Positions 833 through 15,503 of a DNA stretch of 15,503 nucleotides are shown here, piece by piece. The number at the start of each line of letters is the position of its first letter. Positions within the stretch are counted from its first letter, which is position 1. The notes beneath the pieces are model-generated. The model saw nothing but the letters and a program-made list of their open reading frames with translations. It made no database searches and was not told the origin of the DNA. The stretch covers positions 1 to 15,503 of the forward strand of contig JAUHWK010000050.1 in assembly GCA_030424555.1 (NCBI GenBank). Reading direction: 5' to 3'. Source of the stretch: a bacterium. Its GTDB lineage: Bacteria; Myxococcota_A; UBA796; GCA-2862545. The position numbers and the translations under genes are program-made.

Positions 833-847
833 GGTCCGGAGGACGGC

Positions 848-1114
848 ATGAGCGAGAGCACCCTGCACGCGATCACCGGCATGATCGGCGAGGTCCTGGG
901 CGACGAGATGGTGGACGAGCCCATCACCATGGAGACCTCGTTCGCCGACGACCTGGAGATCGAGAGCATCGAGCTGGTTCAGCTGGCCGAGCTGGTCGAG
1001 GCACGGTGGGGCGAGAAGGTCGACTTCAACGCCTGGATCGCAGGACAGTCGATCGACGACGTGATCTCGCTCACCGTCGGGGACCTCGTCACGTTCGTCG
1101 ACTCGTGCCTCTGA
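848..1114 (+). CDS. Stand-alone acyl/peptidyl carrier protein (88 aa)
   Basis: ATG 848 is preceded by GGAGG (838-842, 5-nt spacer). An 88-aa acidic four-helix-type protein with FADDLEIESIELVQL, i.e. a candidate phosphopantetheine-attachment Ser in an ExS(I/L) context in place of the classic DSL. Stop TGA 1112-1114. Confidence 0.7.
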   Translation: MSESTLHAITGMIGEVLGDEMVDEPITMETSFADDLEIESIELVQLAELVEARWGEKVDFNAWIAGQSIDDVISLTVGDLVTFVDSCL

Positions 1115-1866: not shown

Positions 1867-2644
1867 GATCACCCCCCACGACGTCACCCTGCACGTGCAG
1901 ACCACGGGCTCGGGATCCCCGGCGGTCCTGTTCCTGCACGGCCTCGTGATGGACAACCTGTCGAGCTGGTACTTCACCGCCGGGACCCGGGTCGCGCGGG
2001 ATGGCGCCACCGCGGTGTTGATGGACCTGCGGGGGCACGGCCGGAGTGAGCGGCCGGCGACCGGCTACGGCGTGGAGGTCCTGCTGGCCGACATCGTCGG
2101 GGTGCTCGACCACCTCGGCCACGCGCAGGTCGTGGTCGCGGGCAACAGCTTCGGCGGACAGCTCGCCGCGGCCCTCGCGATCGCCCACCCCGAGCGGGTG
2201 CAGGGGGTCGTGCTGGTGGACGCCCACCTGGGCGCGGAGGGCTGGGGGGATGCGATGGCGTCGACCCTTTCCCTCACGGGCGAGGCGCGTGACACCATGA
2301 TCGCGACCCACTTCCAGGACTGGCTGGGGCGCCACAGCACGCGCAAGCGCACGCGGCTCGCCGACACGGCGCGGGCGCTGGTGGAGGGCACCACGTTGGT
2401 CGCCGACCTCCAGGCGTCGCCGGGGCTTGAGGACGACGCGATCGCCCAGTGGACCATGCCGGTCCTCGCCCTGTACGGACAGGACAGCGACCTGCGGGAC
2501 GAGCCCGACCGGCTGCGGCGGCTCGTGCCCCACGCGGACGTGCGGGTGTTCGAGGGCGCGACCCACTCGCTGATGTGGGAGCGAACGGCCGAGGTCGTGG
2601 ACGCGATCGCGGGTTTTGTGGCGGGGTTCCGATGCGAAGGGTGA
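1859..2644 (+). CDS. Alpha/beta-hydrolase-fold protein, thioesterase-like (paralog 2)
   Basis: ATG 1859 overlaps the upstream stop (ATGGCTGA). Clear paralog of the upstream gene: both have LHGL...N..SWYFTA and DLRGHGRSxRPAxGY. Nucleophile elbow here is AGNSFGGQLA (G-N-S-x-G); catalytic His in FEGATHSLMWE. The ORF-track N-terminal extension from 1559 is not supported. Stop TGA 2642-2644. Confidence 0.75.
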   Translation: MAEITPHDVTLHVQTTGSGSPAVLFLHGLVMDNLSSWYFTAGTRVARDGATAVLMDLRGHGRSERPATGYGVEVLLADIVGVLDHLGHAQVVVAGNSFGGQLAAALAIAHPERVQGVVLVDAHLGAEGWGDAMASTLSLTGEARDTMIATHFQDWLGRHSTRKRTRLADTARALVEGTTLVADLQASPGLEDDAIAQWTMPVLALYGQDSDLRDEPDRLRRLVPHADVRVFEGATHSLMWERTAEVVDAIAGFVAGFRCEG

Positions 2645-3813
2645 TGATCGTTGTGCCCCCGCTGGTGGGCCACATCCAGCCCACGGTCGCCCTCGGCCAG
2701 GCCTTGTTGGCCCGCGGACACGACGTGGTGTGGGTGGGCTACCCCACGCGGCTCGAGGGGCGGGTTCCGCCGGGAGGGCGCCTGCATGCGCTCCAGCACG
2801 GGATGGACGATGCCGCGCTCGCGGCCGTCAAGGCGCGGGGCCTGGGGCTTCGTGGGGCGGCAGCGTTCAAGTTCTTGTGGGAGGACCTGTTCTTCCCGCT
2901 GTCCCGCGCGATGCTGGACGGCGTGGCCGAGGCCGTGGCGGCCGAGCAGCCGGACGTGATCGTCCACGATCAGCAGGCGTTCGCGGGCGCCCTCGTCGCA
3001 CGCCGAGCGGGGATCCCGCTGGTGACGAATGCGGCGACGTCGGCCCAACTCTCGGATCCGTTCGACAGCCTTCCTCAGTTTCGAACATGGCTTCAGGACG
3101 GGATGGCGTCCTTGGCCGAGGCGGCAGGATTGCCGGCCGATCCGAGCCAGGTGGCGTCCGACACCGCGATCCTGGCCTGGTCGACCCGTGCGCTGGTCGG
3201 CGACGCGGCGCTTCCACCCCAGACGGTGCTGGTGGGGCCGGCGCGGGGGCCGAGGGCGGACGCCCCGCCGTTCGCGTGGGACCGACTGGACGATCGCCCC
3301 CTGGTGTTCGTCAGCCTGGGCACGGTGTCGATCGACATCGGCGCGCGCTTCTTCGAGGCGGCGGCCACGGTGTTCGCGGAGCGGCCTCACCTCCAGGGCG
3401 TGTTGGTGGCGCCGCCCGAGGCGGTGCAGGCCCCCGACAACCTGCTCGTGGCCTCCTACGTCCCCCAGCTCGACCTGCTCGCGCGGTCGACGGCGGCCGT
3501 GTGCCACGGGGGCCACAACACCGTGGTCGAAGCACTGAGCGAGGGGCTCCCGCTGGTGGTGGCGCCGGTGCGCGACGACCAGCCGGTGGTCGCGGCGCAG
3601 GTCGAGGCGGCGGGCGCAGGGGTGCGGGTTCGGTTTGGACGCATCCGGGCACAGACCCTGGGGGCGGCGCTGGATCGGGTCCTGCAGGACGGGGCGTTCC
3701 GGGCGGCGGCGGGCCGGGTGCGGGACAGCTTCGCGGCCGCGGGGGGCCCGGCGCAGGCGGCGGACGTCGTCGAGCGCGTCATGCGCGAAAGGTCGACGCC
3801 ACCTCGTCCATGA
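2632..3813 (+). CDS. GT1-family UDP-glycosyltransferase (MGT / macrolide-glycosyltransferase-like)
   Basis: N-terminal MRRVMIVVPPLVGHIQPTVALGQALLARGH is the GT-B N-domain GH(I/V)xP motif. C-terminal CHGGHNTVVEALSEGLPLVVAPVRDDQP matches the UDPGT/PSPG-type nucleotide-sugar binding signature. Start is ATG 2632 (overlaps upstream gene by 13 nt) or ATG 2644 (TGATG junction). Stop TGA 3811-3813. Confidence 0.8.
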   Translation: MRRVMIVVPPLVGHIQPTVALGQALLARGHDVVWVGYPTRLEGRVPPGGRLHALQHGMDDAALAAVKARGLGLRGAAAFKFLWEDLFFPLSRAMLDGVAEAVAAEQPDVIVHDQQAFAGALVARRAGIPLVTNAATSAQLSDPFDSLPQFRTWLQDGMASLAEAAGLPADPSQVASDTAILAWSTRALVGDAALPPQTVLVGPARGPRADAPPFAWDRLDDRPLVFVSLGTVSIDIGARFFEAAATVFAERPHLQGVLVAPPEAVQAPDNLLVASYVPQLDLLARSTAAVCHGGHNTVVEALSEGLPLVVAPVRDDQPVVAAQVEAAGAGVRVRFGRIRAQTLGAALDRVLQDGAFRAAAGRVRDSFAAAGGPAQAADVVERVMRERSTPPRP

Positions 3814-4978
3814 GGGCGTCCATCCGGCCGTCGGAGGCGAGGTTGACCGGGATGCTGGCGAGCAGGTCGAACCCGTCGGGCGTGCCGACCAGCGCCATGA
3901 ACAGCGAGGTGACGGGGGTCCCGGGGGGGATGAACACCACCTGTCGCCCGGTGAAGCCGGCGCCGTGCAGGGGGGAGGGGTCCATCCGGCCGAGGTTGGA
4001 GAGCACGCCGGTGCTTCCGTAGCGCCCGGTCTTGCCGTGCTGGCGTCCGCGGTGGCGGGCGACCGCGCGCATCAGCCACAGTGGAACGTGGCGTAGGCCG
4101 TCGGCGGGGAGCAGGCTCGCGGCGGGCTGGTGGGCGGCGATCGCCTGCACGAGGGCGTCGCCGAGGTCGTGGCTGTCCTGCCCGGGCTGGACCTCCAGCG
4201 AGATCATCCCCGTGAGGTTTCCGGTGGAGCGCACACTGGGGTGGTCGCGGCGGAGATCGGCGGGGATGTCGAACCGGATCGGGGCGTCGTCGCCGTGGTG
4301 GGCGCGGGCGTGGGCGGCGACCGCGTGGGCCACGCGGGGCAGGACGGCTTTGTGCTTTCCGGGGATCGATCGGCGCGTCCAGACCACCTCGTGGGACGTG
4401 CCAGTGGGGCGGCCGGTGGGCGCCACGTAGCGGTCTTCGGGGGGCGTCATCGGCTCCAGGCCTTCCGGGCGGGGCAGGTCGCCGTCGAAGGTGGTGTCGG
4501 CGTGGCCCACGCACGGCTCGCCGCGGAGCGCGCGGAACACGTCCTCCGCAAAGAACTGGGTTCCGCGGCCGTCCATCGTGGCGTGGGCGGTGCGGAAGGC
4601 GACCCGGGGGGTGGGGCCGTGCATCAGGACCACCTCGGTGGTGGGCCCGTGGTGGGGATCGAGGGGCCGCTGGAGCCAGGGGGCGCCGTCGCCCGATCGG
4701 CCGTCCCATGGGCTGCCGTCGACCTCGGTGACCGGGGGGACAGGACCCCGGTCGTCCCAGACGGTCCAGCCGACCCAGCCGCGACGGACGACCCGGGCGC
4801 CGGGGTTGGCGCGTGTGGCCTCGGCGACGGCCTCACGCCAGCGCGCGGCGTCGAGCGTGCCCTCGCCCTCGACGATCATCTGGTTGTTGAACGGGGCGAA
4901 CAGCTCGTGGGCGACGACCCAGGCGCGCTCGATGCCGGACATCGGACGACGGTAGGCGGGGACGAGGGTGGTGGTCAT
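3779..4978 (-). CDS. Condensation-domain-like acyltransferase (PapA5 / WS-DGAT-like), 399 aa
   Basis: ATG (rc of 4976-4978) overlaps the stop of the upstream methyltransferase (ATGA). Contains RTAHATMDGRGTQFF, a variant of the HHxxxDG catalytic motif of condensation/PapA/WS-DGAT acyltransferases in which the second (catalytic) His is retained. Length and N-terminal region are similar in layout to PapA5-type enzymes. Stop is rc of 3779-3781. Confidence 0.6.
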   Translation of the reverse strand: MTTTLVPAYRRPMSGIERAWVVAHELFAPFNNQMIVEGEGTLDAARWREAVAEATRANPGARVVRRGWVGWTVWDDRGPVPPVTEVDGSPWDGRSGDGAPWLQRPLDPHHGPTTEVVLMHGPTPRVAFRTAHATMDGRGTQFFAEDVFRALRGEPCVGHADTTFDGDLPRPEGLEPMTPPEDRYVAPTGRPTGTSHEVVWTRRSIPGKHKAVLPRVAHAVAAHARAHHGDDAPIRFDIPADLRRDHPSVRSTGNLTGMISLEVQPGQDSHDLGDALVQAIAAHQPAASLLPADGLRHVPLWLMRAVARHRGRQHGKTGRYGSTGVLSNLGRMDPSPLHGAGFTGRQVVFIPPGTPVTSLFMALVGTPDGFDLLASIPVNLASDGRMDALMDEVASTFRA

Positions 4979-5844
4979 GCGTCCTCAGGCGCCATGCGGG
5001 CGGTGAACACGCGCTGCTCGGTGCGGGTGTCGAGGTGGGGGACGGCCCACGCGTCGGGCGCGTCGGAGGGGGCGAGGGTGCGAACCTCCGAGAACCCGGC
5101 GGACCGCAGGTCGTCGAGCACATCGGCCTGCGATGTGGGATTTTCGGCCAGGCCTTCGCCCCCGGTGAACCGTCGCATCCAGGCGCCGAGCAGGCGGGCG
5201 ACCCAGCCGGGCGGCGGCTTGTCGGCGGGCGGCACGTAGTCGAACGCGACCCAGCCCCCGGCGGGCCGCAGGCGGGCGGCGATCCGGTGCAGGAGGTCGC
5301 GGCGCGCGGCGTCGTCCAGGTACATCAGCAAGCCCTCGGCGAGCACCATCGTGGGGCCGTCGGTCCCGGTGAGGTCGACGAGGTCGGCGCCGCGCAGGTC
5401 GGCGGGGAGCCGGGTGAGGGTGGGACGCGCGGACACGGCCTGTCCCTGAGGATCCCGGGCCAGCAGGGCGGCCTTGTACGAGACGACCTCCGGCAGATCG
5501 ACCTCGGTCCAGGCGACGTCGTGGGTGGCGGTGAACGCGGTGCCGCGGGGGGACAGGCCCGCCGCGAGCTCGAGGACGGTGGTGGCGCCTTGTGCCAGCG
5601 CTTCGTGGACCAAGGCGTCCAGCATCACGTGCCGCTGGACGAGCCCGTGCCGCAGGCTGGGGGCGTTGCGGACGAACCACCCGGCGATGCGCAGCACGCC
5701 CTCGACCGTGCCGAACACCCGGCGGGTGGCGACGGACGCGTAGCGATCGGCACCCGGCCGCTCGGACCAGGCCCACACCCCGGCGGTGTACAGCGCGGTC
5801 ACCGGGAGACCGCCACGGGGGACGGGGGGATCGACGGGGGCCAC
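4975..5844 (-). CDS. Class I SAM-dependent methyltransferase (TIGR00027 / leucine-carboxyl-MT-like putative O-methyltransferase)
   Basis: GTG start (rc of 5842-5844) with GGAGG 4 nt upstream. Motif I VLELAAGLSPRG (cf. VVxLGAGLDTR) and EVDLPEVVSYKAALL (cf. EVDQPxVIxFK) match the actinobacterial TIGR00027 methyltransferase family. 289 aa. Confidence 0.75.
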   Translation of the reverse strand: MAPVDPPVPRGGLPVTALYTAGVWAWSERPGADRYASVATRRVFGTVEGVLRIAGWFVRNAPSLRHGLVQRHVMLDALVHEALAQGATTVLELAAGLSPRGTAFTATHDVAWTEVDLPEVVSYKAALLARDPQGQAVSARPTLTRLPADLRGADLVDLTGTDGPTMVLAEGLLMYLDDAARRDLLHRIAARLRPAGGWVAFDYVPPADKPPPGWVARLLGAWMRRFTGGEGLAENPTSQADVLDDLRSAGFSEVRTLAPSDAPDAWAVPHLDTRTEQRVFTARMAPEDA

Positions 5845-5913
5845 GGCACCTCCGAGGCGACGGCGCGATGACGCCGGCTCGGGGTCCGGCTACCCGCCTC
5901 GCGGGAGGTGTGC
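5845..5913. promoter_or_regulatory. Divergent 69-bp intergenic region, presumably carrying back-to-back promoters for the MT-acyltransferase operon and the PFK-2/FBPase-2 gene
   Basis: This is the only non-coding gap between divergently oriented genes in the left half. It contains RBSs for both genes (GGAGG on each strand). No -10/-35 boxes can be called confidently in this GC-rich sequence. Confidence 0.3.
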
Positions 5914-7161
5914 ATGGCGTGGCGTCCGGTCGACCTCGATCCGCTGGTGTTGGTGATGGTGGGCAAGCCCGCCCGCGGCAAGACGTTCACCGCCCGGCGG
6001 CTGGCCCGCTACCTGACCTGGCTCGGCTACCGGGCCCGGGTGTTCAACGTCGGGACCTACCGGCGGCGGCACCTGGGGGCGGGTCAGCCCGCGTCGTTCT
6101 TCGACCCCGACAACGCCGAGGGGGTGGCCGCCCGGGAGACGATGGCCCGCGAGGCGGTCGATGACCTGATCACCTGGATCGGGGACGGGGGGGAGGTGGG
6201 CCTGCTCGACGCCACCAACGGCCGGCGAGACCGACGGGACTGGGTGCGGCGCGCCTGCGAGGAAGCGGGCCTGCGCGTGCTGTTCATCGAGCTGTCGGTG
6301 GAGGACGACGGGGTCATCGAGTCCAACGTGCGCGGCACGAAGATCCACGGGCTGGACTACGAGGGGTGGGTGGCCGACGACGCCGTCCGCGACTTCATGC
6401 AGCGCATCGCCGCGTACGACCGCGCCTGGCAGCCGCTGGACCCCGCGGAGGGCGACCACATCCGCCTGATCGACGGCGGGCGGCGCATTGAAGCCCAGGG
6501 CCTGCACGGACACCTGGCCGGTCGGCTCGCCACGTTCTTGCTCCACCTGCACCACGGCACCCGCTGCATCGTCCTGTCCCGACACGGGGAGAGCCGGTTC
6601 AACCTGGAGCATCGGATCGGGGGGGACGCGGAGCTGTCGGACCGGGGCGCGGCCTACGCCCGCCGCCTCCGGGACTGGGTCCATCGCCCAGGCCAGACCG
6701 ATCTGGACGGCCTCGCCGTGTGGACCAGCACGTTGCGGCGCACGATCGCCACCGCGGCGGACCTGGGGGCCCCCACCCGTCCCTGGAAGCTGCTGGACGA
6801 GATCGACGCCGGCGTGTGTGACGGCCTGACCTACGACCAGGTCCACACGCGCTTTCCCGACGAGTTCGCCGCCCGGCGCGCCGACAAGTTCAGCTACCGC
6901 TACCCACAGGGCGAGTCCTACCAGGACGTGATCGACCGCCTCGATCCGGTGGTCCTGGAGCTCGAACGCCAACAGCGCCCGCTGATGATCGTCGCCCACC
7001 AGGCGGTGCTGCGCGTGCTGTACGGCTACCTCGCGGGGGTCCACCCCCACCGGATCCCGCACCTCGAGATGCCGCTGCACACGGTGATGCGGGTCACGCC
7101 GGGGGCGTACGGCACCACCGAGACCCGAGAAGTGCTGGGGCCGGAGGCCGTCCAGACCTGA
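5914..7161 (+). CDS. Bifunctional 6-phosphofructo-2-kinase / fructose-2,6-bisphosphatase (PFK-2/FBPase-2)
   Basis: GGGAGG at 5903-5908 then ATG 5914 (GTG 5908 is an alternative). Kinase domain: LVMVGKPARGKTFTARRLARYLTWLGYRARVFNVGTYRR (cf. eukaryotic VMVGLPARGKTYIS..LTRYLNWIG...FNVGEYRR), LLDATNGRRDRR (cf. FDATNTTRERR) and LFIELSVEDDGVIESN. Phosphatase domain: IVLSRHGESRFNLEHRIGGDAELSDRG (RHGE phospho-His motif, cf. [24 protein letters not shown]) and IVAHQAVLRVLYGYL (cf. VICHQAVMRCLLAYF). Confidence 0.8.
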   Translation: MAWRPVDLDPLVLVMVGKPARGKTFTARRLARYLTWLGYRARVFNVGTYRRRHLGAGQPASFFDPDNAEGVAARETMAREAVDDLITWIGDGGEVGLLDATNGRRDRRDWVRRACEEAGLRVLFIELSVEDDGVIESNVRGTKIHGLDYEGWVADDAVRDFMQRIAAYDRAWQPLDPAEGDHIRLIDGGRRIEAQGLHGHLAGRLATFLLHLHHGTRCIVLSRHGESRFNLEHRIGGDAELSDRGAAYARRLRDWVHRPGQTDLDGLAVWTSTLRRTIATAADLGAPTRPWKLLDEIDAGVCDGLTYDQVHTRFPDEFAARRADKFSYRYPQGESYQDVIDRLDPVVLELERQQRPLMIVAHQAVLRVLYGYLAGVHPHRIPHLEMPLHTVMRVTPGAYGTTETREVLGPEAVQT

Positions 7162-7167
7162 TCGGGC

Positions 7168-10100
7168 CTACTCCTCCCGGGCGCGGTCGGCGCGCGCGGC
7201 GAGGTCGGCGATCGCGCTGGCGACCGTGCGGCGGAGGTCCTGGGTCCAGGCCTCGTGGGCGTCCTTGGGCAGGTGGGCCCGGGCGGAGGCGAGCATGTGG
7301 ACCGTGAGCATCTCGATCACGGACAGGGCCGCGGCCAGGTTGGGATCGCCGTCGGACGGGACACGGCGGAGATCGCCGCCCACGGCGCGTCGGGCCTGAT
7401 CCAGGAGCCGCGCCCGGCGGGCGTCGTGGTCGAGGGCGCCGGGGTCGCCTTGGGAGGGCCGGACGGCGTCGCGCAGGGACCGCAGCTCGGCGAGCATGTC
7501 CTGCATCGCGCCGGGGACAGCGGGGGCGGGAGCGGGCGTGGCGGTGGCGAGGTGGGTTGCGATGGCCTGCAAGGGCCCCGCGACGGCCTGGAGATCGGGC
7601 GGCGGGGCCTCGGCCAGCTGACCGTGGACGGCGCGGAGGGCGCGCGCGAGGTCGGCCAGGTGCTGGGTGGTGCCGCGGTCGGACGCCATGGTCTCGCGAA
7701 GCGCCGAGAGCTGCTCGTGGAGGCCGGCGAGGGCGTGCGGCACGGCGGGGTCTCGCAGGCCGGGGCCGAGGGTGCCGACGGCCTCCACCAGCCCGGACAG
7801 CACGCCGACCACGCGGGTGGCTGGGTCGTCGCCGTCGCCGCCCATGAGGCGCTGACGCCGGGTCTCCTGCCGGATGGCGTCCAGGCGCTCGGCACCGACC
7901 TCGTCGAGGCGTCCTCGGAGCTCCGCGAGCCGGAGGAGGTTGAACTCGGCCCCGGTGGTGAGGGTCTGCGACTCGCCACGGTAGTGGTCGTCGATCAGCC
8001 GGTCGACCTCCTCGTCGCGCAGGGCGGGCACGATGCGCTGCGCCAGCTTGGCCATGTTTCGGTAGCTGCCCTGGAGCTGGAACCGGGGCTCGGTCCGGAA
8101 CCGGTCCTCCATCGCAGCGCTGCGCACGTACTCGGCGTTGACCCGGAGCAGGACGTCGCGGCACCGGAACAGGTGCCGCAGCACGGTGAGGATCTCGGAG
8201 CGCTCGACGGCGCTGTAGTCGTGCGACAGCGCGGACGGCGGCAGCTCCTCGCCCTGCGCCATGCGCACCAGGGCATAGACGTCGGCCTGGGCCCGGTCGG
8301 CGAGCGGCTGCAGGACCGGGTTGGACGTGAGCGCGTTCTCGACGAAGGACAGGGCGAACACGTCCTCGCGCCCGTCGAGGACGTCGCCGAGGTTGTAGGT
8401 GTCGGCGCGGTTGGCGAGCATGTCGGGCACCTGGAACCGGTCGCCGGACTCCGTGTACGGGTTGCCGGCCATCACGACCGCGAACTTGCGTCCCCGCAGG
8501 TCGTAGGTGCGGGTGCGCCCGTTCCACACGCCCTCGATGCGGCGGCTGGCGTCGCACAGGGAGATGAACTTCTGGAGCAGCTCGGGGTTCGTGTGCTGGA
8601 TGTCGTCCAGGTACAGCAGGACGTTGTCGCCGAGCTCGAGCGCTAGGTTGATCTTGTCGACCTCCTGCCGGGCGGTGGCGTTGGGGGCCTCTTCGGGGTC
8701 GAGGCTGGTGACGCCGTGGCCGAGGGCCGGGCCGTTGACCTTGACGAACACGAGGCCGAGGCGGTCGGCGACGTACTCCATCAGGGTGGTCTTGCCGTAG
8801 CCGGGGGGGCTGACCAGGAGCAGCAAGCCCATCAGGTCGGTGCGCTTGGCGTCGCCGGCGGCGCCGATCTGCTTGGCGAAGTTGTCGCCGATCAGGGGCA
8901 GGTAGGCGTCCTGGATGAGCTTGTTGCGCACGAACGCGCTCATCACCTTGGGCTCGAGCTCGTCGATGCGCAGGCGGTGTCGCCAGCGCTCGAGGACGTC
9001 GTGACGGGTGGCCCGCCAGGCGCGGAAGCCCGGCACGCGCTCGGTGGCGAAGCGGGTGAGGCGGTCGAGGAAGGGGGCGAGGGACAGGTCCATCGCGCCG
9101 TCGCGGACGCGCGGGTGGCGCCCCAGCAAGCCCTGGACCGTGGTGCGGGCCTCGGTGGCCTCCACCTGGATGTCGACCTGGCGCTCGACCAGCCACCACA
9201 CCGCGGTCTCGAACGCGACGCCGGGATCGGCCGGGGCATCGGCCGTGCTGGCGATCGCCTCGCACCAGGCGTGCAGGACCTGGAGGTGCTCGACGGGACG
9301 GTCGGACAGCGCCCGGAGGCGATCGTCGAACGCGCCGCGGCCGCCATGGTCTTCGATCCAGCGGTCGAGGCGGGCGCGCAGGTCCTGGGCGGCGGACGAC
9401 ACGGCCATGCGGGCGGGCTCGGTGGCGAGGGCGTCGACCAGGGCCGCCCCGGCGGCGGGGAGGTCGGACGCCCACTGGCTGGGGCCGCCCGGGACGTCGA
9501 ACCCGATCTCCTGGAGCCACGCGCGGAGGACACCGGTGAGCTCGGTGGCGAAGGCCTCGGCGGCGCCGCCTGGACCCAGGGTGTCGCGGATCCGCACGAG
9601 CGTGCGGGCCCGGGCCTGCCACGCGCCCCACGGTGCGTCGGTGTGCAGCCCCCGAAACAGCATCGCCAGGGCGCGGGCGCGGGTGCCAAAGCGCTGCCAC
9701 CCGGCGGCCTGGCGGAGCTGGACGAGTGCCTTGAGGATCGCGGCGGCATCGACGTCGTGGACGCCGCGATCGTACCCCTCGTCCCAGGCCTCCGCGGTGT
9801 GCGAGCGCACGATGTCGAGCAGGCCGGCTTCGGTGAGAAGGGCCTGCTCCAGCGTGCTGACGTCGAGGCCGTCGCCGCGCTGGGCGGCATCGAGGACGCG
9901 CCAGGCCAGGTACTCGGCGCGGTAGACCGCCTCGGTCTCGCTGACGAGGGCCTGGTCCCAGTACGCACGGGCCGCGAGGACGTCGGGATCGTCGAGGCGC
10001 TGCCGGAACTGGGTGCCGGTGAGGGTGAGGGCGACGTGCAGGTCGTCGCCCTCGCCGTCGGGGACGAGCGCCAGCTCGAACGGCTGGGTGTTCACGGTGA

Positions 10101-12729
10101 ACTTGTGGCGCCCGAGGCTGATCAGCCGGTCGGCGTCGAACAGCTCGGCGTCGTCGCGCAGCGCGCGGAGGGCATCCTGGCGGGTGCGGCGAAGGCGTCC
10201 CCGGAGATCCTCGGCGCGCACGGTGTCGCCCAGGGAGACGAGCTCGTCGGCGAGGGCGCGCAGGCGGCCCACCATGGGGTCGGCGGCGAAGAAGCTGTTC
10301 AGGGCGTCTTCGTCGGTGTGGGTCCGGGCCCGTCGGGCGAGGCCCTCCAGGATCCGATCGGCGGCCGCGACCCGGGCGGCGACCCGCCGGTTCCGGTCGT
10401 CCAGCAGGCGCTGTCGGCGGGCGGCGAACGCGCTGTGGACGTCCTCGCGCTGGGTGGTGAGGGCTGGGAGGAACGCATCCGACGCGCCGAACCGGGCCTC
10501 GAGCTCCTCGACCTGGAGCAGGAGGCGCGACAGCTGTTCGTCGCACGCCTCGGGGGTGTCGCACCGGGCCAGGGCGGACTGGACGGCCTGGGACAGCAGC
10601 TTGATCTGCGCGGAGAACTCGGCCTCACCCTCCTTGGCCGCCAGGGCTTCTTCGCGTTGCTCGAGCGCGAGCCGGACCCGGTTGGCGGTGCTGAACACCT
10701 CGCCGATGCGATCGAGCAGGGCGGCCTTGCGGGTGGGATCGTCGACCTCGAGGCCCGCCACCACCTCGGCGAGCAGGTCCACGCCCTCGGCGGTCTGGGT
10801 GAGGCGCTCGGCCCAGGGCTCCAGCTCCAGGGTTCGTCGAACCCCTGGCAGGGCGGCCTCGACCTCGGCCAAGCCCTGGATCAACGGTGCGAAGGCGGCC
10901 TCGCCCTCCAAGAACCGGATCGTGGCCTGCCCGACCCGTTCGAACCGCGTCTCGGCCTCGTCGCCCAGCGCCTGCAAGGCGGCGCGATCGGCGAAGCGGA
11001 CGTCCTGCAGCGTGATCAGGTGCCCGCGGTGTCGGCGGAGACGGGTCATCGCGCCGAGCAGGGCGTCGATGCTGGTGAGGCGCTCGGTGCGCACCGCGTC
11101 CATCAGCGAGGCGTGCTCCTCGCGGGCCGCGCGCAGGGTGTCGGCGGCGCGGCGCTGCAGGACCAGGACCTTTTCGAACTCGTCGACGACCTGCTCGGTC
11201 GCTTGCAGGGTGGCCTCGACCGCCTCGGCGAGGCCGTGCATCGAGGCATCGGACGCCCAGTAGTGGGCGTCGAGGAAGCGCTGGCACCCGGCGGCGAGCT
11301 CGTCGAAGGCGGCTCGGGTGGGCTCGGGGTGGGTGGCGAGGCGGGCCAGGGTGAGGGCGTCGGACACCCCGCGCACCAGCTCGGCGTTGCCCACGCGGGC
11401 GATCAGGTCGTCGCCGTGGGCGGCGGGGTCGACGTGCTCCGGGTGGACGAACGGGGTGCGCCAGAGCTGGATCGGGTGGACGCGGGTGGGGTCGGGCTGG
11501 GCGCGGAACACGGCCAGCGTGCCGTCGTCGAACAGGGACCAGCCGTGGGCGTGGATGGGGGTGCGGACGTCCTTGCGGATGAGGTTGTAGCTGTACAGGG
11601 CGTACAGGCCGTCGGACGCGCGGTGGAACACGTACAGGACGTCTTCGCCGTTGGGGGCGTCGAGGCGCCGGACGAACCGCATCCCGTCGTGCTCGGCGTC
11701 GAACACCTTGTGCTGGCCGTCGCGCAGGACGTACCCGCCGGGGAACAGGATGCCGTGGTCCTCGGGCAGGGTGACGCAGCTGGCGCCGAGGGCGTCGATG
11801 CGCAGGACCTGCCGGGTGGTCCGCACGAACACGAGGTGGCGGGTGACGGCCTCGTTGAAGGGCGTGATGCGCAGCAACAGCAGGGAGCCGCGGTCGGCGT
11901 AGGCGATGGCGGCGTCGTCGAGAGACTGGTTGGGGTCGTCGACGGGCTCGGAGTACACGCCCTCCCCGGTCTCCGTGTTGTCCTCGACCTTGACCGTGAG
12001 GTCGCCGCCGACGGTCTCGACGAACACGGTGTCGAGCACGTTGACGTGGGGGTGCCGGCCGCGGACGTGGTCGTCGCGGGTGGTGGCGGTCCAGGTGAAG
12101 TCGTGGGCGGGCGGGAACACGTGGTCGCGCTCGCCGCGGTTGTCGACGTAGGTGGGGGTGTCGTCGGCGGTGAGATCCCACCGGAGGACCTTGACGTCCT
12201 CGGGCCGCTTGCCGATGCGGAACACGGCGAGCAGGCGTCCGTCGACGCGGCGCAGCTGGGTGAGCCGGGCGTCCGCGTAGTACTGGAACAGCTCGTTGAA
12301 CTCACGGTCGAACGCCGGGCCCTCGAGGAAGGACCGGGCGCTCTCGGCCGCGGGGCGGAAGGTGGGGACGTCGCCGCTGCGGTCGATGGTGTACAGGCCG
12401 AACACGTCGCCGGGCGAGGTGGTCTGCTTGAGGCCGAGGAACACCTCGTAGCCGACCAGCAGGTGGTCCCCGATCGGGACCATGTCGTGGGGGGTGTTGG
12501 CGTGCTCGGTGCGCACGCGCTCCTGGCCGAGCACCTCGAACGACACCGAGCCGAACCGATCGACCCGCTGGGCGTTGAGGGTGTCGGCGGCGGCCTTGAC
12601 CGCGGAGGCTCGGTCGGCGAGGCGGCGGCGCAGGACGCCGTAGTTGCCCTGGTCGACCGCGGCGTCGGTGCCCTCGGGGGCGGGATCGGACGGGGCGTCT
12701 TGGGTGGGGTCGTCAGCTCGGTCGGCCAT
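7168..12729 (-). CDS. Giant (1853 aa) protein with an embedded MoxR/AAA_5-type AAA+ ATPase module; function unknown
   Basis: ATG (rc of 12727-12729) with GGGAGG 8 nt upstream. Balanced amino-acid composition, unlike the G/A/V-rich antisense ORF. The AAA module is annotated separately. The N-terminal ~1250 aa and the low-complexity C-terminal ~280 aa match nothing I can recognise. Stop is rc of 7168-7170. Confidence 0.75.
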   Translation of the reverse strand: MADRADDPTQDAPSDPAPEGTDAAVDQGNYGVLRRRLADRASAVKAAADTLNAQRVDRFGSVSFEVLGQERVRTEHANTPHDMVPIGDHLLVGYEVFLGLKQTTSPGDVFGLYTIDRSGDVPTFRPAAESARSFLEGPAFDREFNELFQYYADARLTQLRRVDGRLLAVFRIGKRPEDVKVLRWDLTADDTPTYVDNRGERDHVFPPAHDFTWTATTRDDHVRGRHPHVNVLDTVFVETVGGDLTVKVEDNTETGEGVYSEPVDDPNQSLDDAAIAYADRGSLLLLRITPFNEAVTRHLVFVRTTRQVLRIDALGASCVTLPEDHGILFPGGYVLRDGQHKVFDAEHDGMRFVRRLDAPNGEDVLYVFHRASDGLYALYSYNLIRKDVRTPIHAHGWSLFDDGTLAVFRAQPDPTRVHPIQLWRTPFVHPEHVDPAAHGDDLIARVGNAELVRGVSDALTLARLATHPEPTRAAFDELAAGCQRFLDAHYWASDASMHGLAEAVEATLQATEQVVDEFEKVLVLQRRAADTLRAAREEHASLMDAVRTERLTSIDALLGAMTRLRRHRGHLITLQDVRFADRAALQALGDEAETRFERVGQATIRFLEGEAAFAPLIQGLAEVEAALPGVRRTLELEPWAERLTQTAEGVDLLAEVVAGLEVDDPTRKAALLDRIGEVFSTANRVRLALEQREEALAAKEGEAEFSAQIKLLSQAVQSALARCDTPEACDEQLSRLLLQVEELEARFGASDAFLPALTTQREDVHSAFAARRQRLLDDRNRRVAARVAAADRILEGLARRARTHTDEDALNSFFAADPMVGRLRALADELVSLGDTVRAEDLRGRLRRTRQDALRALRDDAELFDADRLISLGRHKFTVNTQPFELALVPDGEGDDLHVALTLTGTQFRQRLDDPDVLAARAYWDQALVSETEAVYRAEYLAWRVLDAAQRGDGLDVSTLEQALLTEAGLLDIVRSHTAEAWDEGYDRGVHDVDAAAILKALVQLRQAAGWQRFGTRARALAMLFRGLHTDAPWGAWQARARTLVRIRDTLGPGGAAEAFATELTGVLRAWLQEIGFDVPGGPSQWASDLPAAGAALVDALATEPARMAVSSAAQDLRARLDRWIEDHGGRGAFDDRLRALSDRPVEHLQVLHAWCEAIASTADAPADPGVAFETAVWWLVERQVDIQVEATEARTTVQGLLGRHPRVRDGAMDLSLAPFLDRLTRFATERVPGFRAWRATRHDVLERWRHRLRIDELEPKVMSAFVRNKLIQDAYLPLIGDNFAKQIGAAGDAKRTDLMGLLLLVSPPGYGKTTLMEYVADRLGLVFVKVNGPALGHGVTSLDPEEAPNATARQEVDKINLALELGDNVLLYLDDIQHTNPELLQKFISLCDASRRIEGVWNGRTRTYDLRGRKFAVVMAGNPYTESGDRFQVPDMLANRADTYNLGDVLDGREDVFALSFVENALTSNPVLQPLADRAQADVYALVRMAQGEELPPSALSHDYSAVERSEILTVLRHLFRCRDVLLRVNAEYVRSAAMEDRFRTEPRFQLQGSYRNMAKLAQRIVPALRDEEVDRLIDDHYRGESQTLTTGAEFNLLRLAELRGRLDEVGAERLDAIRQETRRQRLMGGDGDDPATRVVGVLSGLVEAVGTLGPGLRDPAVPHALAGLHEQLSALRETMASDRGTTQHLADLARALRAVHGQLAEAPPPDLQAVAGPLQAIATHLATATPAPAPAVPGAMQDMLAELRSLRDAVRPSQGDPGALDHDARRARLLDQARRAVGGDLRRVPSDGDPNLAAALSVIEMLTVHMLASARAHLPKDAHEAWTQDLRRTVASAIADLAARADRAREE
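8000..8900 (-). other. MoxR/AAA_5-like AAA+ ATPase module within the giant protein (approx. residues 1280-1570)
   Basis: Motif positions in plus-strand coordinates: Walker A ~8791-8815 (LLLLVSPPGYGKTTL), Walker B ~8596-8622 (VLLYLDDIQH), sensor-1 region ~8440-8500 (FAVVMAGNPYTESGDRFQVPDMLANRAD, cf. MoxR ATQNPxExEGTYxLPEAQLDRF), lid ~8024-8086 (QLQGSYRNMAKLAQRI, cf. MoxR SPRA...LLRAA). Boundaries are approximate. Confidence 0.6.
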
Positions 12730-12800: not shown

Positions 12801-14789
12801 TCAGGCGTCGTCGTCGGTGCTGCCGGACAGCGCGTCGAGCACGGTGCCGACCGCGCCCTTGGCCGCGTCGCTGCGGGACAGGAACACGTCGAGGGCCTGA
12901 CCCAGCGAGGCGGCCTTGACGATGCTGTCGAGGAACTGGCCGTCGCCGCCCATGATCTGGATGTCGGCCTTGCCGAACGCCTCGGCGAGGACGGACGCCT
13001 GCTCCTCGGCGATCTTCTCCTGGGCGGCCAGCCGCGCCAGGGCGATCTTCTCGTCGAGGTTGAGCTTCATCCGGAACTCCTCGTGGTCCTTGGCGGGACC
13101 CTCCATCTTCTGCATGGCGAGCAGCTTCTCGGCGAGTCCGGTGGCCTCGGCGGCCATGCGGGCCTTGATCGCGGCGGCCTCGGCGGCCCCCATCTTCTCG
13201 ATCGCGATGGCGTCGGCTTCCTTGCCCTGGGCCTCGGCGACCATCTTCTCGCGCTGGAGCATGGCCTCGAGCTCGATCTCCTTCTCGCGAACGGCCATCG
13301 CGGCCAGGCCCTTGGCCTCGTCGCCCTTGGCCTCGGCGACCTTCTGCTCCGCGGTGACGCGGGCGGTCGCCATGCCCATCTTCTCGGTGGCGACGGCGTC
13401 GGCTTCCTTGACGCGGACCTTGGCGAGCCCTGCGGCGGCCTCCTCGGCTTGCACGCCCTCGGCAATGCGGGCCTTGGCCTTGGCGACGCGCTCGGCTTCC
13501 TCGAGCTTGGCGTTGGCGAGGGTGAGGGTCTCGCGGGCCTGGGCCTCGGCGGCCTTCTCGCGCGCCTCGGCGGCCTTGATCTCCTTGATCAGGAGCTCCT
13601 CGGCCTGGGCCTCGGCCTCGATGACGTGGACGTCCTTGTTGCGGGTGGCCTCCATGGTGGCGCGCAGGTCCTTGATGCGCTCCTCCTCCTCGGCCACGGT
13701 CTTGTCGATCGCGATGCGCGTGCGGACGACCTCGGCGATCTCCTTGCGCTTGACCTCCAGCTCCATCTCCTTGTCGATCTGCTGGCGCTCGACTTCACGC
13801 TCGCGGCCGATCACCTCGACCATGCGGTCGCGCTCGACGTGCTCGGCCTTGATCGCCACGACGCGCTCACGGTCCTTGTCTGCGACCTCGACCTGGCGGC
13901 GCTTGTTGAGGTCGCTGACCTCGATCTGCTCGGCGGCCTGGATGCGGGCGAGCTCGGCGCGCTGGTGCTCCTCGGCTTCGACCTTGGCGGTCTCGGCGGC
14001 CTCGCGGGCCTTGACCGTGGCGATCTCGCGCTGCTGGCGTGCCTCGGCGTCGGCGCGGCGGCGGCGCAGCTCGAGGATCTGCTCCTCGGCTTCGAGGTTC
14101 TGTCGGGTCTCCTCCTTCTTGTAGTCCTGGGCGAGCTGGTTGGTCTGCAGGTTCTGCTTGACCGTGATCTCGGTGATCTTGCGGATGCCCTGGGCGTCGA
14201 GGATGTTGTTTCGATCGAGCTTCTCGAGCGGGGTCTGCTCGAGGTAGTCGATGGCGGCGTCGTCGAGGACGTAGCCGTTGAGGTCGCGGCCGATGACCTC
14301 GATGATCCGGTCCTTGAAGTCGTCTCGCTGGGTGTACAGCTGCTCGAAGTCCAGCTTCTTGCCGACGGTCTTGAGGGCCTCGGAGAACTTGGCGACGAAC
14401 AGCTCCTCGAGGGTGGTCTGGTCGGACGCGCGGGCGCAGCCGATGCTCTGGGCCACCTTGAGCACGTCCTCCTTGGTCTTGTTGACCCGGACGTAGAAGC
14501 TGACCTTGATGTCGGCCCGGATGTTGTCGTGGCAGATCAGGCCTTCGTGGCCCGATCGGGCGATCTCGATGGTCTTGACCGAGATGTCCATGACCTCGGC
14601 CCGGTACACGATCGGGACGACCACGGCGCCGGTGAACGTGACGGCCGGCTCGGCGGTCATCTTGTTGACGATGAGGGCCTTGCCCTGGTCGACCTTGCGG
14701 TAGAACCGCGCGACCATCACGAGCGCGCCGGCGAAGAACACCGCCAGGCCCAACCCGACGAGAAGGGTGAAGATCATGGCTTCGGACAT
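12801..14789 (-). CDS. Flotillin-family SPFH/band-7 membrane protein (YqiK/FloT-like), 662 aa
   Basis: ATG (rc of 14787-14789) with GGAGG 7 nt upstream. N-terminal TM helix (IFTLLVGLGLAVFFAGALVMVA) followed by YRKVDQGKALIV, typical of flotillin SPFH domains. Long central Glu/Ala/Lys/Arg coiled coil with EA repeats. C-terminal flotillin-like tail. Stop is rc of 12801-12803. Confidence 0.9.
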   Translation of the reverse strand: MSEAMIFTLLVGLGLAVFFAGALVMVARFYRKVDQGKALIVNKMTAEPAVTFTGAVVVPIVYRAEVMDISVKTIEIARSGHEGLICHDNIRADIKVSFYVRVNKTKEDVLKVAQSIGCARASDQTTLEELFVAKFSEALKTVGKKLDFEQLYTQRDDFKDRIIEVIGRDLNGYVLDDAAIDYLEQTPLEKLDRNNILDAQGIRKITEITVKQNLQTNQLAQDYKKEETRQNLEAEEQILELRRRRADAEARQQREIATVKAREAAETAKVEAEEHQRAELARIQAAEQIEVSDLNKRRQVEVADKDRERVVAIKAEHVERDRMVEVIGREREVERQQIDKEMELEVKRKEIAEVVRTRIAIDKTVAEEEERIKDLRATMEATRNKDVHVIEAEAQAEELLIKEIKAAEAREKAAEAQARETLTLANAKLEEAERVAKAKARIAEGVQAEEAAAGLAKVRVKEADAVATEKMGMATARVTAEQKVAEAKGDEAKGLAAMAVREKEIELEAMLQREKMVAEAQGKEADAIAIEKMGAAEAAAIKARMAAEATGLAEKLLAMQKMEGPAKDHEEFRMKLNLDEKIALARLAAQEKIAEEQASVLAEAFGKADIQIMGGDGQFLDSIVKAASLGQALDVFLSRSDAAKGAVGTVLDALSGSTDDDA

Positions 14790-14896: not shown

Positions 14897-15503
14897 TCAG
14901 CCGCGGGGCGTGAGGGACTCGACGACGAAGGCCTCTCGGCGCGGATCGAAGGAGACGACGAGCGCCTCGCTGCCTCGCTGCAGGCCGTTGGACTCGGCAT
15001 CGCAGCGGACCTGGACGAGCAGGTGGTCGCCGTCGACCTGGACCTCGGCCTGGCCGAAGCTGCGGTCGACCCGGCCGGTGGTGACGGTGGCGGTGGCCCC
15101 GACCACGGAGTCGCGCGTGCGGCCAGCACGGAACTCGAACACGGGCAGCAAGGGCGTGGTGAGCAAGGACGCGCCCACCCCGCCGGCCACCCAGGCGCCG
15201 ACGAGCACGCCCGCGGATCCGGCGATCCAGGTGGCGCCCTCGGTCCCGCGCAGCATCACCGATCCCAGGTAGGACACCGCCCACCCGACCAGGAGCCACA
15301 CGGACAGGGTGATCGTGAGGGGGATGCGGCCGATGTGCAGTGCCTGCAGGACCGGGCCCAGGGACGAGGGAGCGTGACCGGCCTCTGCGGCCCCGTCGGC
15401 GGCGTCTGCCGCGGCGTCGACACCTTCCATGGCACCGTCGAGCGCGCCGTCGGCACCCTCGATCACCCCGTCGATCCCCTCCAAGGCGCCGTCGACCCCT
15501 TCG
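14897..15503 (-). CDS. NfeD-like (YqiJ/YuaF-type short NfeD) membrane protein with C-terminal OB-fold; partial, 5' end outside window
   Basis: Frame is open to the window edge; the ORF-track start at 15484 is a TTG. Two predicted TM helices (IPLTITLSVWLLVGWAVSYLGSVML; WIAGSAGVLVGAWVAGGVGASLL). C-terminal beta-rich segment GATATVTTGRVDRSFGQAEVQVDGDHLLVQVRCDAES...GSEALVVSFDPRREAFVVE is typical of NfeD OB-fold domains. Lies directly upstream of the flotillin gene, as in yqiJ-yqiK / yuaF-floT. Confidence 0.65.
   Translation of the reverse strand, partial: EGVDGALEGIDGVIEGADGALDGAMEGVDAAADAADGAAEAGHAPSSLGPVLQALHIGRIPLTITLSVWLLVGWAVSYLGSVMLRGTEGATWIAGSAGVLVGAWVAGGVGASLLTTPLLPVFEFRAGRTRDSVVGATATVTTGRVDRSFGQAEVQVDGDHLLVQVRCDAESNGLQRGSEALVVSFDPRREAFVVESLTPRG
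15391..15503 (-). repeat. Imperfect ~21-bp tandem repeat (at least 5 units, continuing beyond the window) encoding heptad repeats EGxDGxx / DAAADAA at the N-terminus of the NfeD-like protein
   Basis: Plus-strand units share ccgtcga(n)cccct...ggcgc with 21-nt periodicity (e.g. 15424-15444, 15445-15465, 15466-15486, 15487-15503). Translation on the minus strand gives EGVDGAL-EGIDGVI-EGADGAL-DGAMEGV-DAAADAA-DGAAEAG. Confidence 0.5.

Follow-up and report, generated by a model that had tools for sequence, protein, structure and literature searches.

The window analyzed here is a 15,503-nt stretch of DNA from a Myxococcota_A genome (contig JAUHWK010000050.1). On its reverse strand it carries a giant ATPase gene with two further genes directly upstream, at spacings of 71 nt (flotillin to ATPase) and 107 nt (YqiJ-like gene to flotillin) (Table 1). 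Third-position GC in the frame of the ATPase ORF is 0.92 to 0.99 (about 0.95) over the whole length, and the ORF is a real gene. A sequence scan detected no transmembrane (TM) segment or signal peptide in the ATPase, and therefore a cytoplasmic location is expected.

Table 1. Features of the ATPase locus (coordinates are positions in the window; all features are on the reverse strand)
Feature	Residues	Position (nt)	Strand	Basis or remark
Giant ATPase gene (DUF3686/"DNA repair ATPase" family)	1,853 aa	7168..12729	-	ORF
DUF3686 domain, predicted beta-propeller	aa 46-490	11260..12594	-	Pfam PF12458
Long helical bundles	aa 491-863	10141..11259	-	DUF7902 inside
DUF7902	aa 612-694	10648..10896	-	Pfam PF25472
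Small beta domain between helical regions	aa 869-912	9994..10125	-	AF2 strands
Second helical domain, N-terminal to AAA+ module	aa 937-1250	8980..9921	-	AF2 helices
Single AAA+ module, core and lid	aa 1290-1640	7810..8862	-	Alignments, AF2, Foldseek, Pfam
Variable Ala/Leu/Arg/Pro-rich helical tail with conserved terminal helical pair	aa 1641-1853	7171..7809	-	Composition, pLDDT
Flotillin (YqiK-type) gene	662 aa	12801..14789	-	Band_7, YqiK BLASTP
YqiJ/NfeD-like membrane protein gene, 5' end beyond window edge		14897..15503	-	Alignment, hhalign

The original prediction had treated about 1,250 residues N-terminal to the AAA+ core as unassigned and had named a known domain family in this region as the outcome that would count against it. 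The Pfam search returned two such families. PF12458 (DUF3686) matched with an E value of 3e-183 (609.9 bits against a cutoff of 25) over the full length of the profile (positions 4 to 448 of 448), and PF25472 (DUF7902) matched with an E value of 2.7e-19. By these matches, the window ATPase is a member of an already catalogued giant ATPase family. More than 5,480 proteins share its architecture, from at least 568 species in six phyla, under the NCBI name "DNA repair ATPase." Among the matches listed, all 120 homologues combined PF12458, PF25472, and PF00004 in chains of 1,649 to 1,968 aa, and the closest relative was 64% identical. In 595 representative proteins, DUF3686 was always N-terminal and was found only in this architecture (chains of about 1,550 to 2,036 aa). 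A Rosetta-stone search of the representatives gave three candidate fusions with an NfeD- or flotillin-like start (P0202, P0260, and P0269). We rejected them as apparent frameshifts or misassemblies; they contain frameshift-like Arg/Pro-rich stretches or internal deletions.

We found that the AF2 model agreed with the beta-rich N terminus and the long helical region that had been predicted: aa 65 to 424 are all-beta (pLDDT of about 90), and aa 442 to 863 and 937 to 1181 are helical (pLDDT of about 90 for the latter). The two strings quoted earlier for the beta region were located at aa 235 and 376. Foldseek matches of DUF3686 were beta-propellers only (Elp1, sialidase, Ski8, prolyl oligopeptidase, Kelch, and DDB1; E values of 1e-5 to 1e-3). 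The small beta domain has strands at 869 to 872, 875 to 878, 886 to 891, 898 to 903, and 909 to 912, and the alignments show a conserved G873-x-H-x-F877-x-V879-N-T motif within it. The second helical domain contains the invariant motif E984-G-Y986-x-R988-G-x-H991-D992. The AF2 model and the Foldseek matches give an order of folds that runs from a beta-propeller through spectrin/talin-like helical bundles to one divergent AAA+ module.

Within this module, which has a pLDDT above 90, the motifs lie where they had been placed (GYGKTT at aa 1310, LYLDDIQH at 1372, NPYTESGDRFQVPDMLANRAD at 1423, and QGSYRNMAKLAQR at 1553), and Pfam and the AF2 model both gave the single AAA module per chain that had been claimed. 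Walker A (G1310-Y-G-K1313-T-T, nt 8785 to 8811), sensor 1 (N1423), the Arg finger (R1441), and sensor 2 (R1557) are invariant in alignments of 25 and 77 sequences; judged by these residues, the AAA+ core is intact at all of these sites. Walker B (L-Y-L-D1375-D1376, nt 8602 to 8619) ends in DD, not the canonical DE, in every aligned member. Since an Asp replaces the catalytic Glu throughout the family, ATP may be hydrolyzed slowly or in a switch-like manner. No aromatic pore-loop residue is present in the beta2-alpha2 loop (GPALGHGVTSLDPEEAPN), so Vps4-like threading finds no support in the sequence.

The predicted MoxR type of this core held up in part. Pfam gave 25.6 bits for AAA and 24.7 bits for AAA_5 (cutoff, 22), and the AF2 model has a pre-sensor-1 beta-hairpin between alpha3 and beta4 (aa 1397 to 1410). 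At the helix-2 position, the alignment and the model show a conserved 14-residue loop with no clear hairpin. Foldseek against the PDB matched NorQ (4.4e-5) and CbbQ, and NorQ had the best TM-scores among PDB structures (0.56 to 0.60, normalized to NorQ). However, RuvB (4e-5) and MCM (5.6e-5) scored equally well, ClpB was also matched, and sequence identity to the structural matches was 13 to 20%. In PDB sequence searches with the single sequence or a 25-sequence profile, only about 35 to 45 residues around Walker A matched, and no solved structure of any ATPase relative was found. We concluded that MoxR membership of the module is weakly supported.

The C-terminal tail had been described as Pro/Ala-rich and of low complexity. 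It consists of 21% Ala, 14% Leu, 10% Arg, 8% Asp, and 8% Pro, and it is variable and modeled with low confidence (pLDDT of 37 to 70); its length also varies, with actinobacterial homologues of about 1,600 to 1,690 aa. However, helices are predicted for the tail, sequence conservation returns over its last ~60 residues, and pLDDT rises to 70 to 82 over the last ~50 aa.

The upstream neighbors are both membrane proteins. The flotillin has an N-terminal TM segment (aa 5 to 27), an SPFH/Band_7 domain (aa 32 to 174, nt 14268 to 14696), a long Glu/Ala coiled coil, and, at its C terminus, a conserved flotillin end, IMGGDG. The full-length protein gave no Pfam match because of coiled-coil bias; the first 230 aa searched alone recovered Band_7 (PF01145; E value of 5.6e-9, 36.7 bits). 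By BLASTP, it matched Escherichia coli YqiK with an E value of 7e-37 over 439 aa. It is 67 to 80% identical to the equivalent genes in three other loci (L001 to L003), compared with 53 to 64% for the ATPase across compared relatives, and its subfamily is 47 to 80% identical across phyla. The part of the YqiJ-like protein inside the window comprises an acidic D/G-repeat linker, two TM helices, and a C-terminal small beta domain, and it aligns with proteins of about 270 aa encoded upstream of the flotillin in L001 to L003. Its Pfam match to YqiJ_N was weak (E value of 8e-4), matches of single family members were marginal, and a profile search of the PDB gave only spurious TM matches, which we discarded. 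The assignment was decided by profile-profile comparison of the family alignment with E. coli YqiJ (hhalign probability of 93.7%, E value of 1.9e-7). NCBIfam and PADLOC scans gave nothing meaningful for the ATPase, the flotillin, the YqiJ-like protein, or a 399-aa neighbor.

We surveyed 83 loci from Myxococcota, Actinomycetota, Gamma- and Betaproteobacteria, Planctomycetota, and Acidobacteriota. In 81 of them, the gene immediately upstream of the ATPase gene, on the same strand, encodes a YqiK-type flotillin; for the other two, the available upstream DNA is shorter than 400 nt. A gene for a YqiJ/NfeD-like protein with three TM segments precedes the flotillin gene in about 70 of the 83, and 4-nt gene overlaps are frequent in actinobacterial loci. 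Linkage of the ATPase, the flotillin, and the YqiJ-like protein is therefore near-obligate across six phyla. The original prediction had spoken of no VWA partner and had overlooked the flotillin and YqiJ-like genes, which lie directly upstream on the same strand and are conserved with the ATPase.

Other neighbors are optional. The survey revealed no fourth universally conserved gene, and the largest additional cluster occurred in 17 of 83 loci at variable positions. DUF2170 (YjfI, CesT/Tir-like) and PspA genes lie upstream of the module in 14 loci, all gammaproteobacterial; linkage of PspA, Band7/FloT, and NfeD has been reported (PMC9239133). The ATPase gene is followed by a PLD (HKD) hydrolase gene in 8 loci and by a rhomboid gene in 7, and a small TerB-like ORF sits between the flotillin and ATPase genes in some Pseudomonas and Lysobacter loci. 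The cassette has a patchy phyletic distribution and occurs on megaplasmids (pQBR103 and those of Deinococcus, Streptomyces, and Hymenobacter). On pQBR103 (PQBR_RS00460-00470) it follows yjfKLMC-like genes and is annotated as "SPFH domain-containing protein" and "DNA repair ATPase." The closest syntenic relative of the window locus, L003, has no PspA gene beside the cassette and has a divergent unrelated gene upstream. The YqiJ-like gene is cut by the edge of the window, whose locus is probably an abbreviated form without PspA.

Because the ATPase gene is linked to the flotillin and YqiJ-like genes, the protein most likely has its role in membrane scaffolding or in envelope stress and not in DNA repair. 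We propose, with a probability of about 0.6, that it serves as the ATPase subunit in a conserved membrane module of three genes that remodels a flotillin scaffold, encoded in the order YqiJ/NfeD-like 3-TM protein, YqiK-type flotillin (TM, SPFH, and coiled coil), and DUF3686 AAA+ ATPase. According to this model, the C-terminal bulk of the flotillin would be cytoplasmic, as the positive-inside rule suggests (RFYRK after the TM segment), and the flotillin and YqiJ-like protein would oligomerize to form a scaffold or cage beneath the membrane. The ATPase, as a soluble protein, would oligomerize through its single MoxR/RuvB-like AAA+ module, probably into a hexamer of about 1.2 MDa, and its N-terminal beta-propeller and spectrin-like helical arms would dock it on the scaffold or on clients. 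Through ATP binding and hydrolysis, the flotillin assembly, and possibly that of PspA, would be built up, remodeled, or taken apart during envelope stress, much as Vps4 acts on ESCRT-III or as FtsH is held inside HflK/C. ATP-driven remodeling of the flotillin/YqiJ scaffold is thus the probable function of the ATPase.

The database name implies something else, a genuine DNA repair ATPase that acts on DNA like RuvB, MCM, or SMC-type proteins. The Pfam text for PF12458 likewise reads "ATPase involved in DNA repair," the AAA+ module has RuvB and MCM among its top matches by structure, and weak RuvB_N and RuvB NCBIfam matches cover the Walker A region. However, sequence similarity to RuvB extends over only about 40 residues at Walker A (19.5 bits by NCBIfam against a cutoff of 282); Pfam, NCBIfam, PDB sequence, and fold searches detected no DNA-binding or nuclease domain; and the conserved neighbors are genes for membrane proteins, not repair genes. 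A literature search found no paper naming DUF3686 or PF12458 and thus no experimental basis for the repair name, and searches for "DNA repair ATPase" with flotillin, or for flotillin with MoxR, returned nothing relevant. Long coiled coils commonly attract SMC/SbcC-like labels. We consider a role in repair scarcely credible and the name most likely a legacy misnomer. A dynein/midasin-like tether or motor, in which a helical lever on the AAA+ ring pulls the membrane-anchored flotillin and deforms the membrane, would suit the long helical region directly N-terminal to the AAA+ module, which resembles the dynein linker, and the "dynein-related" description of AAA_5. Dynein heavy chains were also the top Foldseek matches of aa 1 to 1200 (E value of 1.7e-6), yet with TM-scores of 0.03 to 0.09. 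Proteins of this type have six concatenated AAA modules and the window ATPase has one, and we regard such a motor as very unlikely.

MoxR ATPases normally have their VWA partner encoded next to them, as in RavA-ViaA, CbbQ-CbbO, and NorQ-NorD. A VWA partner acting in trans from elsewhere in the genome would accommodate the AAA_5 match above the gathering threshold, the TM-scores of NorQ and CbbQ, the pre-sensor-1 hairpin, and the JGI label "MoxR-like ATPase" on some members. We found, however, no conserved VWA gene within 10 kb on either side of the ATPase in the 83 loci. The absence of a VWA partner from the window, which had been predicted, was also borne out: the ATPase and the two upstream proteins have no DxSxS (MIDAS) motif, and no window gene has a VWA Pfam match. 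The N-terminal region of about 1,250 aa could itself replace a VWA adaptor, and a partner in trans seems quite improbable. A further reading is a membrane-associated conflict or defense system of the abortive-infection kind, in which the flotillin/YqiJ pair would respond to disturbance of the envelope, for instance by an entering phage, and the ATPase would switch on an effector, for instance the PLD-family hydrolase. Conflict systems commonly include large STAND/AAA+ proteins that sense through a propeller, and the PLD and TerB-like genes and the patchy, megaplasmid-borne distribution would be in keeping with one. However, these effector-like genes occur in a minority of loci, and the window neighbors are metabolic and biosynthetic, not a defense island. 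Flotillin conservation of up to 80% is atypical of fast-evolving defense genes. PADLOC-DB 2.0 gave no significant match for the ATPase (best, IetA, E value of 0.0042 over 29 P-loop residues) and nothing for the flotillin or YqiJ-like protein. We therefore think a defense role unlikely.

Remodeling of a flotillin scaffold thus remains our preferred function for the module. A bolder version, which we offer tentatively, is that the DUF3686 ATPase is dedicated to flotillin cages and uses ATP to assemble or disassemble them, as a hexamer of some 1.2 MDa with six propeller-tipped arms gripping the flotillin dome. If so, SPFH scaffolds in bacteria would have an equivalent of Vps4 or NSF, flotillin microdomains would have their first known regulator that consumes energy, and work on bacterial flotillin function would gain a direct experimental handle. 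That function is itself unsettled (PMC13086221). Bacterial flotillins lack an agreed molecular activity, and they have no energy source that is known. Since its gene adjoins that of one flotillin subfamily at every locus with readable upstream DNA (81 of 83), the ATPase is a strong candidate for the active component that is missing. The "DNA repair ATPase" label, for which we found no support, misdirects readers of genomes. Pfam already listed the N-terminal domains, and a computational description of the operon appeared in 2024; what the present analysis adds is the quantified linkage, the structural models of all domains, and the invariant Walker B DD. Tractable hosts for the module include Pseudomonas fluorescens SBW25 with pQBR103, Proteus mirabilis, Corallococcus, and Streptomyces.

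Several known systems resemble the module. With the MoxR proteins of the NorQ-NorD, CbbQ-CbbO, and RavA-ViaA pairs, the ATPase shares a single AAA+ module, the sensor 2 Arg, the pre-sensor-1 hairpin, and the motif layout NPxxE...P..L.nR. It differs in a chain 5 to 6 times longer with the N-terminal propeller and helical region, in the Walker B DD, in having no VWA/MIDAS partner in cis, and in an identity of 13 to 18%. The E. coli YqiJ-YqiK and Bacillus subtilis YuaF(NfeD2)-FloT operons likewise encode an NfeD-like multi-TM protein and, downstream, a flotillin built of TM, SPFH, and coiled coil, but they have no third, ATPase gene, and the window flotillin is longer (662 versus 553 aa). When the Xenorhabdus AAA+ region was searched as DNA against 5,426 complete E. 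coli genomes, no ATPase homologue was detected. Since flotillin/YqiJK pairs exist without the ATPase, as in E. coli, the ATPase is accessory and not a general requirement.

SPFH cages are paired with AAA+ proteins in HflK/C-FtsH, prohibitin-m-AAA protease, and SLP2-YME1L-PARL. Here, too, an SPFH scaffold is coupled genetically or physically to an AAA+ machine, and the rhomboid gene after the ATPase in some loci is reminiscent of PARL. However, the AAA+ partner in those pairs is a classical-clade protease anchored in the membrane, whereas the window ATPase, from another AAA+ clade, is soluble and carries no protease domain. Vps4/CdvC is a small classical-clade AAA protein with an MIT domain and an aromatic pore loop, features that the window ATPase does not have; the likeness is that an AAA+ protein is genetically linked to a membrane-remodeling polymer, ESCRT-III being of the PspA/Vipp1 superfamily and PspA being adjacent in the 14 gammaproteobacterial loci. 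The same analogy with Vps4/ESCRT-III was drawn by Ravi et al. in 2024, who described this operon and proposed ATP-dependent sub-membrane dynamics (PMC11237479). Their account is a single computational paragraph without linkage counts, the DUF3686 name, or the Walker B DD; a paper on Pseudomonas aeruginosa SPFH proteins does not cover the flotillin/YqiJ/ATPase module. The optional CesT/Tir (YjfI/DUF2170)-PspA dyad and the PLD hydrolase in Proteobacteria agree between the two descriptions. The window module, although a divergent copy, probably corresponds to what Ravi et al. call the abbreviated operon, which lacks PspA. It matches their operon in the flotillin, the adjacent YqiJ/YuaF-type protein, and the propeller and helical AAA+ ATPase, with the same gene order, the same domain architecture of each protein, and no structural difference.

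We found that the ATPase ORF is genuine coding sequence, unlike the spurious ORFs that abound in high-GC DNA (72% G+C in the window), because its third-position G+C stays at 0.92-0.99, exactly in frame, from end to end. The sequence observations of the original prediction were accurate: GYGKTT is located at residue 1310, LYLDDIQH at 1372, NPYTESGDRFQVPDMLANRAD at 1423, and QGSYRNMAKLAQR at 1553, and DxSxS is absent from the ATPase and the two proteins encoded upstream. Its framing as an orphan MoxR protein with an unassigned N terminus, however, fails. We found that the N-terminal region contains known domain families catalogued in Pfam, with residues 46-490 matching PF12458 (DUF3686; E=3e-183, 448/448 profile positions) and residues 612-694 matching PF25472 (DUF7902; E=2.7e-19). 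A known family at this end was an outcome that the original prediction itself had named as refuting it.

More than 5480 database proteins matched the ATPase at E<=1e-5. Among the matches listed, the closest relative is only 64% identical, and 120/120 homologues have an identical architecture, at lengths of 1649-1968 aa. DUF3686 alone as query retrieved 595 proteins from 1.84 billion representative proteins. Since it is always N-terminal in these chains of ~1550-2036 aa (shorter matches being fragments), we concluded that DUF3686 is confined to this architecture.

Coordinates of genes in the window, of genes in comparison loci, and of predicted ATPase segments
Feature	Position	Strand	Remarks
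PKS dehydratase fragment	14-832		truncated by window edge
Alpha/beta-hydrolase	829-1866		
Alpha/beta-hydrolase	~1863-2644		
EryCIII-like glycosyltransferase	2449-3813		
399-aa protein	3779-4978	minus	no family match
LCM-type methyltransferase	4975-5844	minus	
Bifunctional 6-phosphofructo-2-kinase/histidine-phosphatase (PFK-2/FBPase-2-like)	5908-7161	plus	
ATPase	7168..12729	minus	1853 residues
Flotillin	12801-14789	minus	662 aa; directly upstream of ATPase, gap 71 nt
YqiJ-like gene	14897 to window edge		next upstream of flotillin; aligns with ~270-aa proteins of related loci
YqiJ-like genes, linker examples	L003:1651-2460; L004:6752-7573; L012:6885-7667		
pQBR103 locus containing the cassette	L085 = NC_009444.1 87154-106269		P. 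fluorescens SBW25 megaplasmid
N-terminal helix	aa 28-59		AlphaFold2
All-beta domain	aa 65-424		AlphaFold2
Long helices	aa 442-863		AlphaFold2
Small beta domain	aa 869-912		AlphaFold2
Second helical domain	aa 937-1181		AlphaFold2

We built two AlphaFold2 models from 77-sequence alignments, one of residues 1-1200 (pLDDT 86) and one of residues 1151-1853 (pLDDT 78; AAA+ core, >90). The second contains a single alpha-beta-alpha AAA+ core plus lid, a beta-hairpin between alpha3 and beta4 at the pre-sensor-1 position, and a helical C-terminal tail of low confidence, which improves over the final ~50 residues. The ATPase has no transmembrane (TM) segment.

Pfam AAA and AAA_5 match residues 1303-1426 weakly (~25 bits, barely over the cut-offs), and PDB sequence and profile searches matched only the Walker A neighborhood. 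The closest PDB structures to the module were RuvB (4e-5), NorQ (4.4e-5), MCM, CbbQ, and ClpB, at 11-21% identity, with the highest TM score for NorQ (0.56-0.60). When 25 and 77 homologues were aligned, Walker A (G1310-Y-G-K1313-T-T), sensor 1 N1423, R1441, and sensor 2 R1557 were invariant, as was D1375-D1376 of Walker B, which places Asp where the catalytic Glu is usual. An aromatic pore loop is absent from the module; this and the Walker B Asp are caveats to the mechanism proposed below. Because the motifs are invariant, Walker B reads DD, and the structural matches are mixed, we consider the module intact but divergent, near the MoxR/RuvB/MCM group. "MoxR-type" is fair as a resemblance (NorQ and CbbQ are among the top structures), but membership is not established, as RuvB and MCM also match.

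In the flotillin, an N-terminal TM helix is followed by an SPFH domain, a long Glu/Ala coiled coil, and a conserved C terminus. The protein aligns with E. coli YqiK, also a flotillin, over 439 residues (E=7e-37). Its conservation exceeds that of the ATPase. The full-length protein gave zero Pfam matches because the compositional bias of the coiled coil trips HMMER's bias filter; residues 1-230 alone matched Band_7/SPFH above the gathering threshold (E=5.6e-9). The precomputed Pfam column is likewise empty for its homologues, an annotation pitfall. The ~270-aa relatives of the YqiJ-like protein contain TM1, an acidic D/G-rich linker, and two further TM helices, with a small beta domain at the C terminus, and the family profile matched E. 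coli YqiJ (93.7% probability, E=1.9e-7). In our alignment of these proteins (A6, columns ~85-190), the linker consists of highly variable Asp/Gly-rich repeats (DGALDG or GGKALGGAIEG), expanded in Myxococcota and nearly missing in actinobacteria.

The ATPase gene occurs in at least 568 species of Myxococcota, Actinomycetota, Gamma- and Betaproteobacteria, Planctomycetota, and Acidobacteriota. We took 80 loci from one-genome-per-species collections and counted linkage over 83 loci. A flotillin gene (47-80% identity) is found directly upstream in the same orientation in 81/83; in the other two, the available upstream sequence is <400 nt. A YqiJ-like gene comes before the flotillin gene in ~70/83. 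These two are the conserved genomic partners of the ATPase gene. Fourteen loci, all gammaproteobacterial, carry DUF2170 (YjfI) and PspA/IM30 (E=1.3e-57) genes ahead of this cassette on the same strand. A PLD-like gene follows it in 8 loci and a rhomboid gene in 7. Flotillin/YqiJ pairs also occur without the DUF3686 ATPase, E. coli being an example, and candidate gene fusions involving the cassette appear artefactual; both points are further caveats to the proposed mechanism.

Several loci depart from this layout. A gap of 410-460 nt between flotillin and ATPase in Pseudomonas and Lysobacter (L054:~9533-9994, L055:~9499-9922, L079:~9587-9997) encodes a conserved ~80-aa ORF (MSEPRDYLEMSFRSIQCFANDGRLD...) with a near-threshold TerB match (23.8 bits; cut-off, 24.4). 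In two betaproteobacterial loci (Ideonella, Aquabacterium; L081:~9347-9943, L082:~8444-9010), the ORF found there is ~200 aa long and opens with a zinc-ribbon-like Cys-x-Cys...Cys-x2-Cys pattern (LRCDCP...HHCQAC). In L001, from a 9.4-Mb genome, the interval holds an extra 290-aa gene (7086-7958) without a family match, whose product aligns poorly with YqiJ-like proteins (28%), and a weak TerB gene lies downstream. The ~6.4 kb between the two genes in Myxococcales bacterium 68-20 (L019:3638-10001) may be an insertion. An Actinoplanes MAG (L041:10019-14818) has the ATPase broken into 294-aa and 1275-aa ORFs, by frameshift or as a pseudogene.

Beside the cassette in the window is a small biosynthetic-looking cluster (14-5844). 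Its genes are syntenic in L003 (11389-18060), the locus of the 64%-identical relative, which adds a full PKS (KS-AT-DH). The PFK-2/FBPase-2-like gene, of an enzyme type uncommon in bacteria, is convergent with the ATPase gene (6 nt between stop codons) and is conserved in L003. PspA is absent upstream of the L003 cassette.

A literature search turned up neither a mention of DUF3686 or PF12458 nor any experiments on the ATPase. Ravi et al. (mSystems 2024, PMC11237479) described exactly this operon within a survey of phage-shock-protein systems, listing CesT/Tir (YjfI)-PspA in combination with flotillin/YqiJ/AAA+, a PLD hydrolase as a sometime member, and "abbreviated operons" without PspA as more widely distributed. 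The window probably has the abbreviated form, in line with L003. Our analysis independently reproduces their description; it adds the numbers, structural models, Pfam DUF link, misnomer, and Walker B DD. The domain identities, near-obligate synteny, and PspA linkage are shown by our data. On pQBR103, the cassette comes right after yjfKLMC-like genes (DUF2491-DUF350-DUF1190-glutathionylspermidine-synthase-family), with MvaT/MvaU and PLD-family genes downstream. This arrangement unites two classes of PspA operon treated separately by Ravi et al. It is annotated there as "SPFH domain-containing protein" and "DNA repair ATPase."

That last name recurs for the homologues at NCBI ("MoxR-like ATPase" sometimes at JGI), and the Pfam description of PF12458 reads "ATPase involved in DNA repair." Nothing beyond such naming supports a true DNA repair ATPase, which we consider scarcely credible; the current database name misleads. 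A dynein-like motor is very improbable. A MoxR ATPase could have its VWA partner encoded at an unlinked site. When all other ORFs of the 83 loci were clustered, no further neighbor was universally conserved and no conserved VWA protein appeared, and we rate a distant partner as improbable. PLD genes near the cassette, TerB-like ORFs, and plasmid carriage support a membrane-linked defense system, but PADLOC returned no significant matches and conservation is high, making this unlikely too.

We concluded that the ATPase adds a divergent member to the flotillin/YqiJ-linked DUF3686 AAA+ family, which is widespread and so far described computationally. The finding itself is not new, and the cassette is a good entry point to flotillin function. 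We propose that a sub-membrane scaffold would be built from the flotillin, predicted by the positive-inside rule to face the cytoplasm, together with the YqiJ-like protein. The ATPase, itself soluble, would oligomerize via its AAA+ module and bind the scaffold or its clients through its predicted N-terminal beta-propeller and helical arms, and its nucleotide cycle could remodel the assembly under envelope stress. Such an action would resemble that of Vps4 with ESCRT-III or of FtsH with HflK/C.
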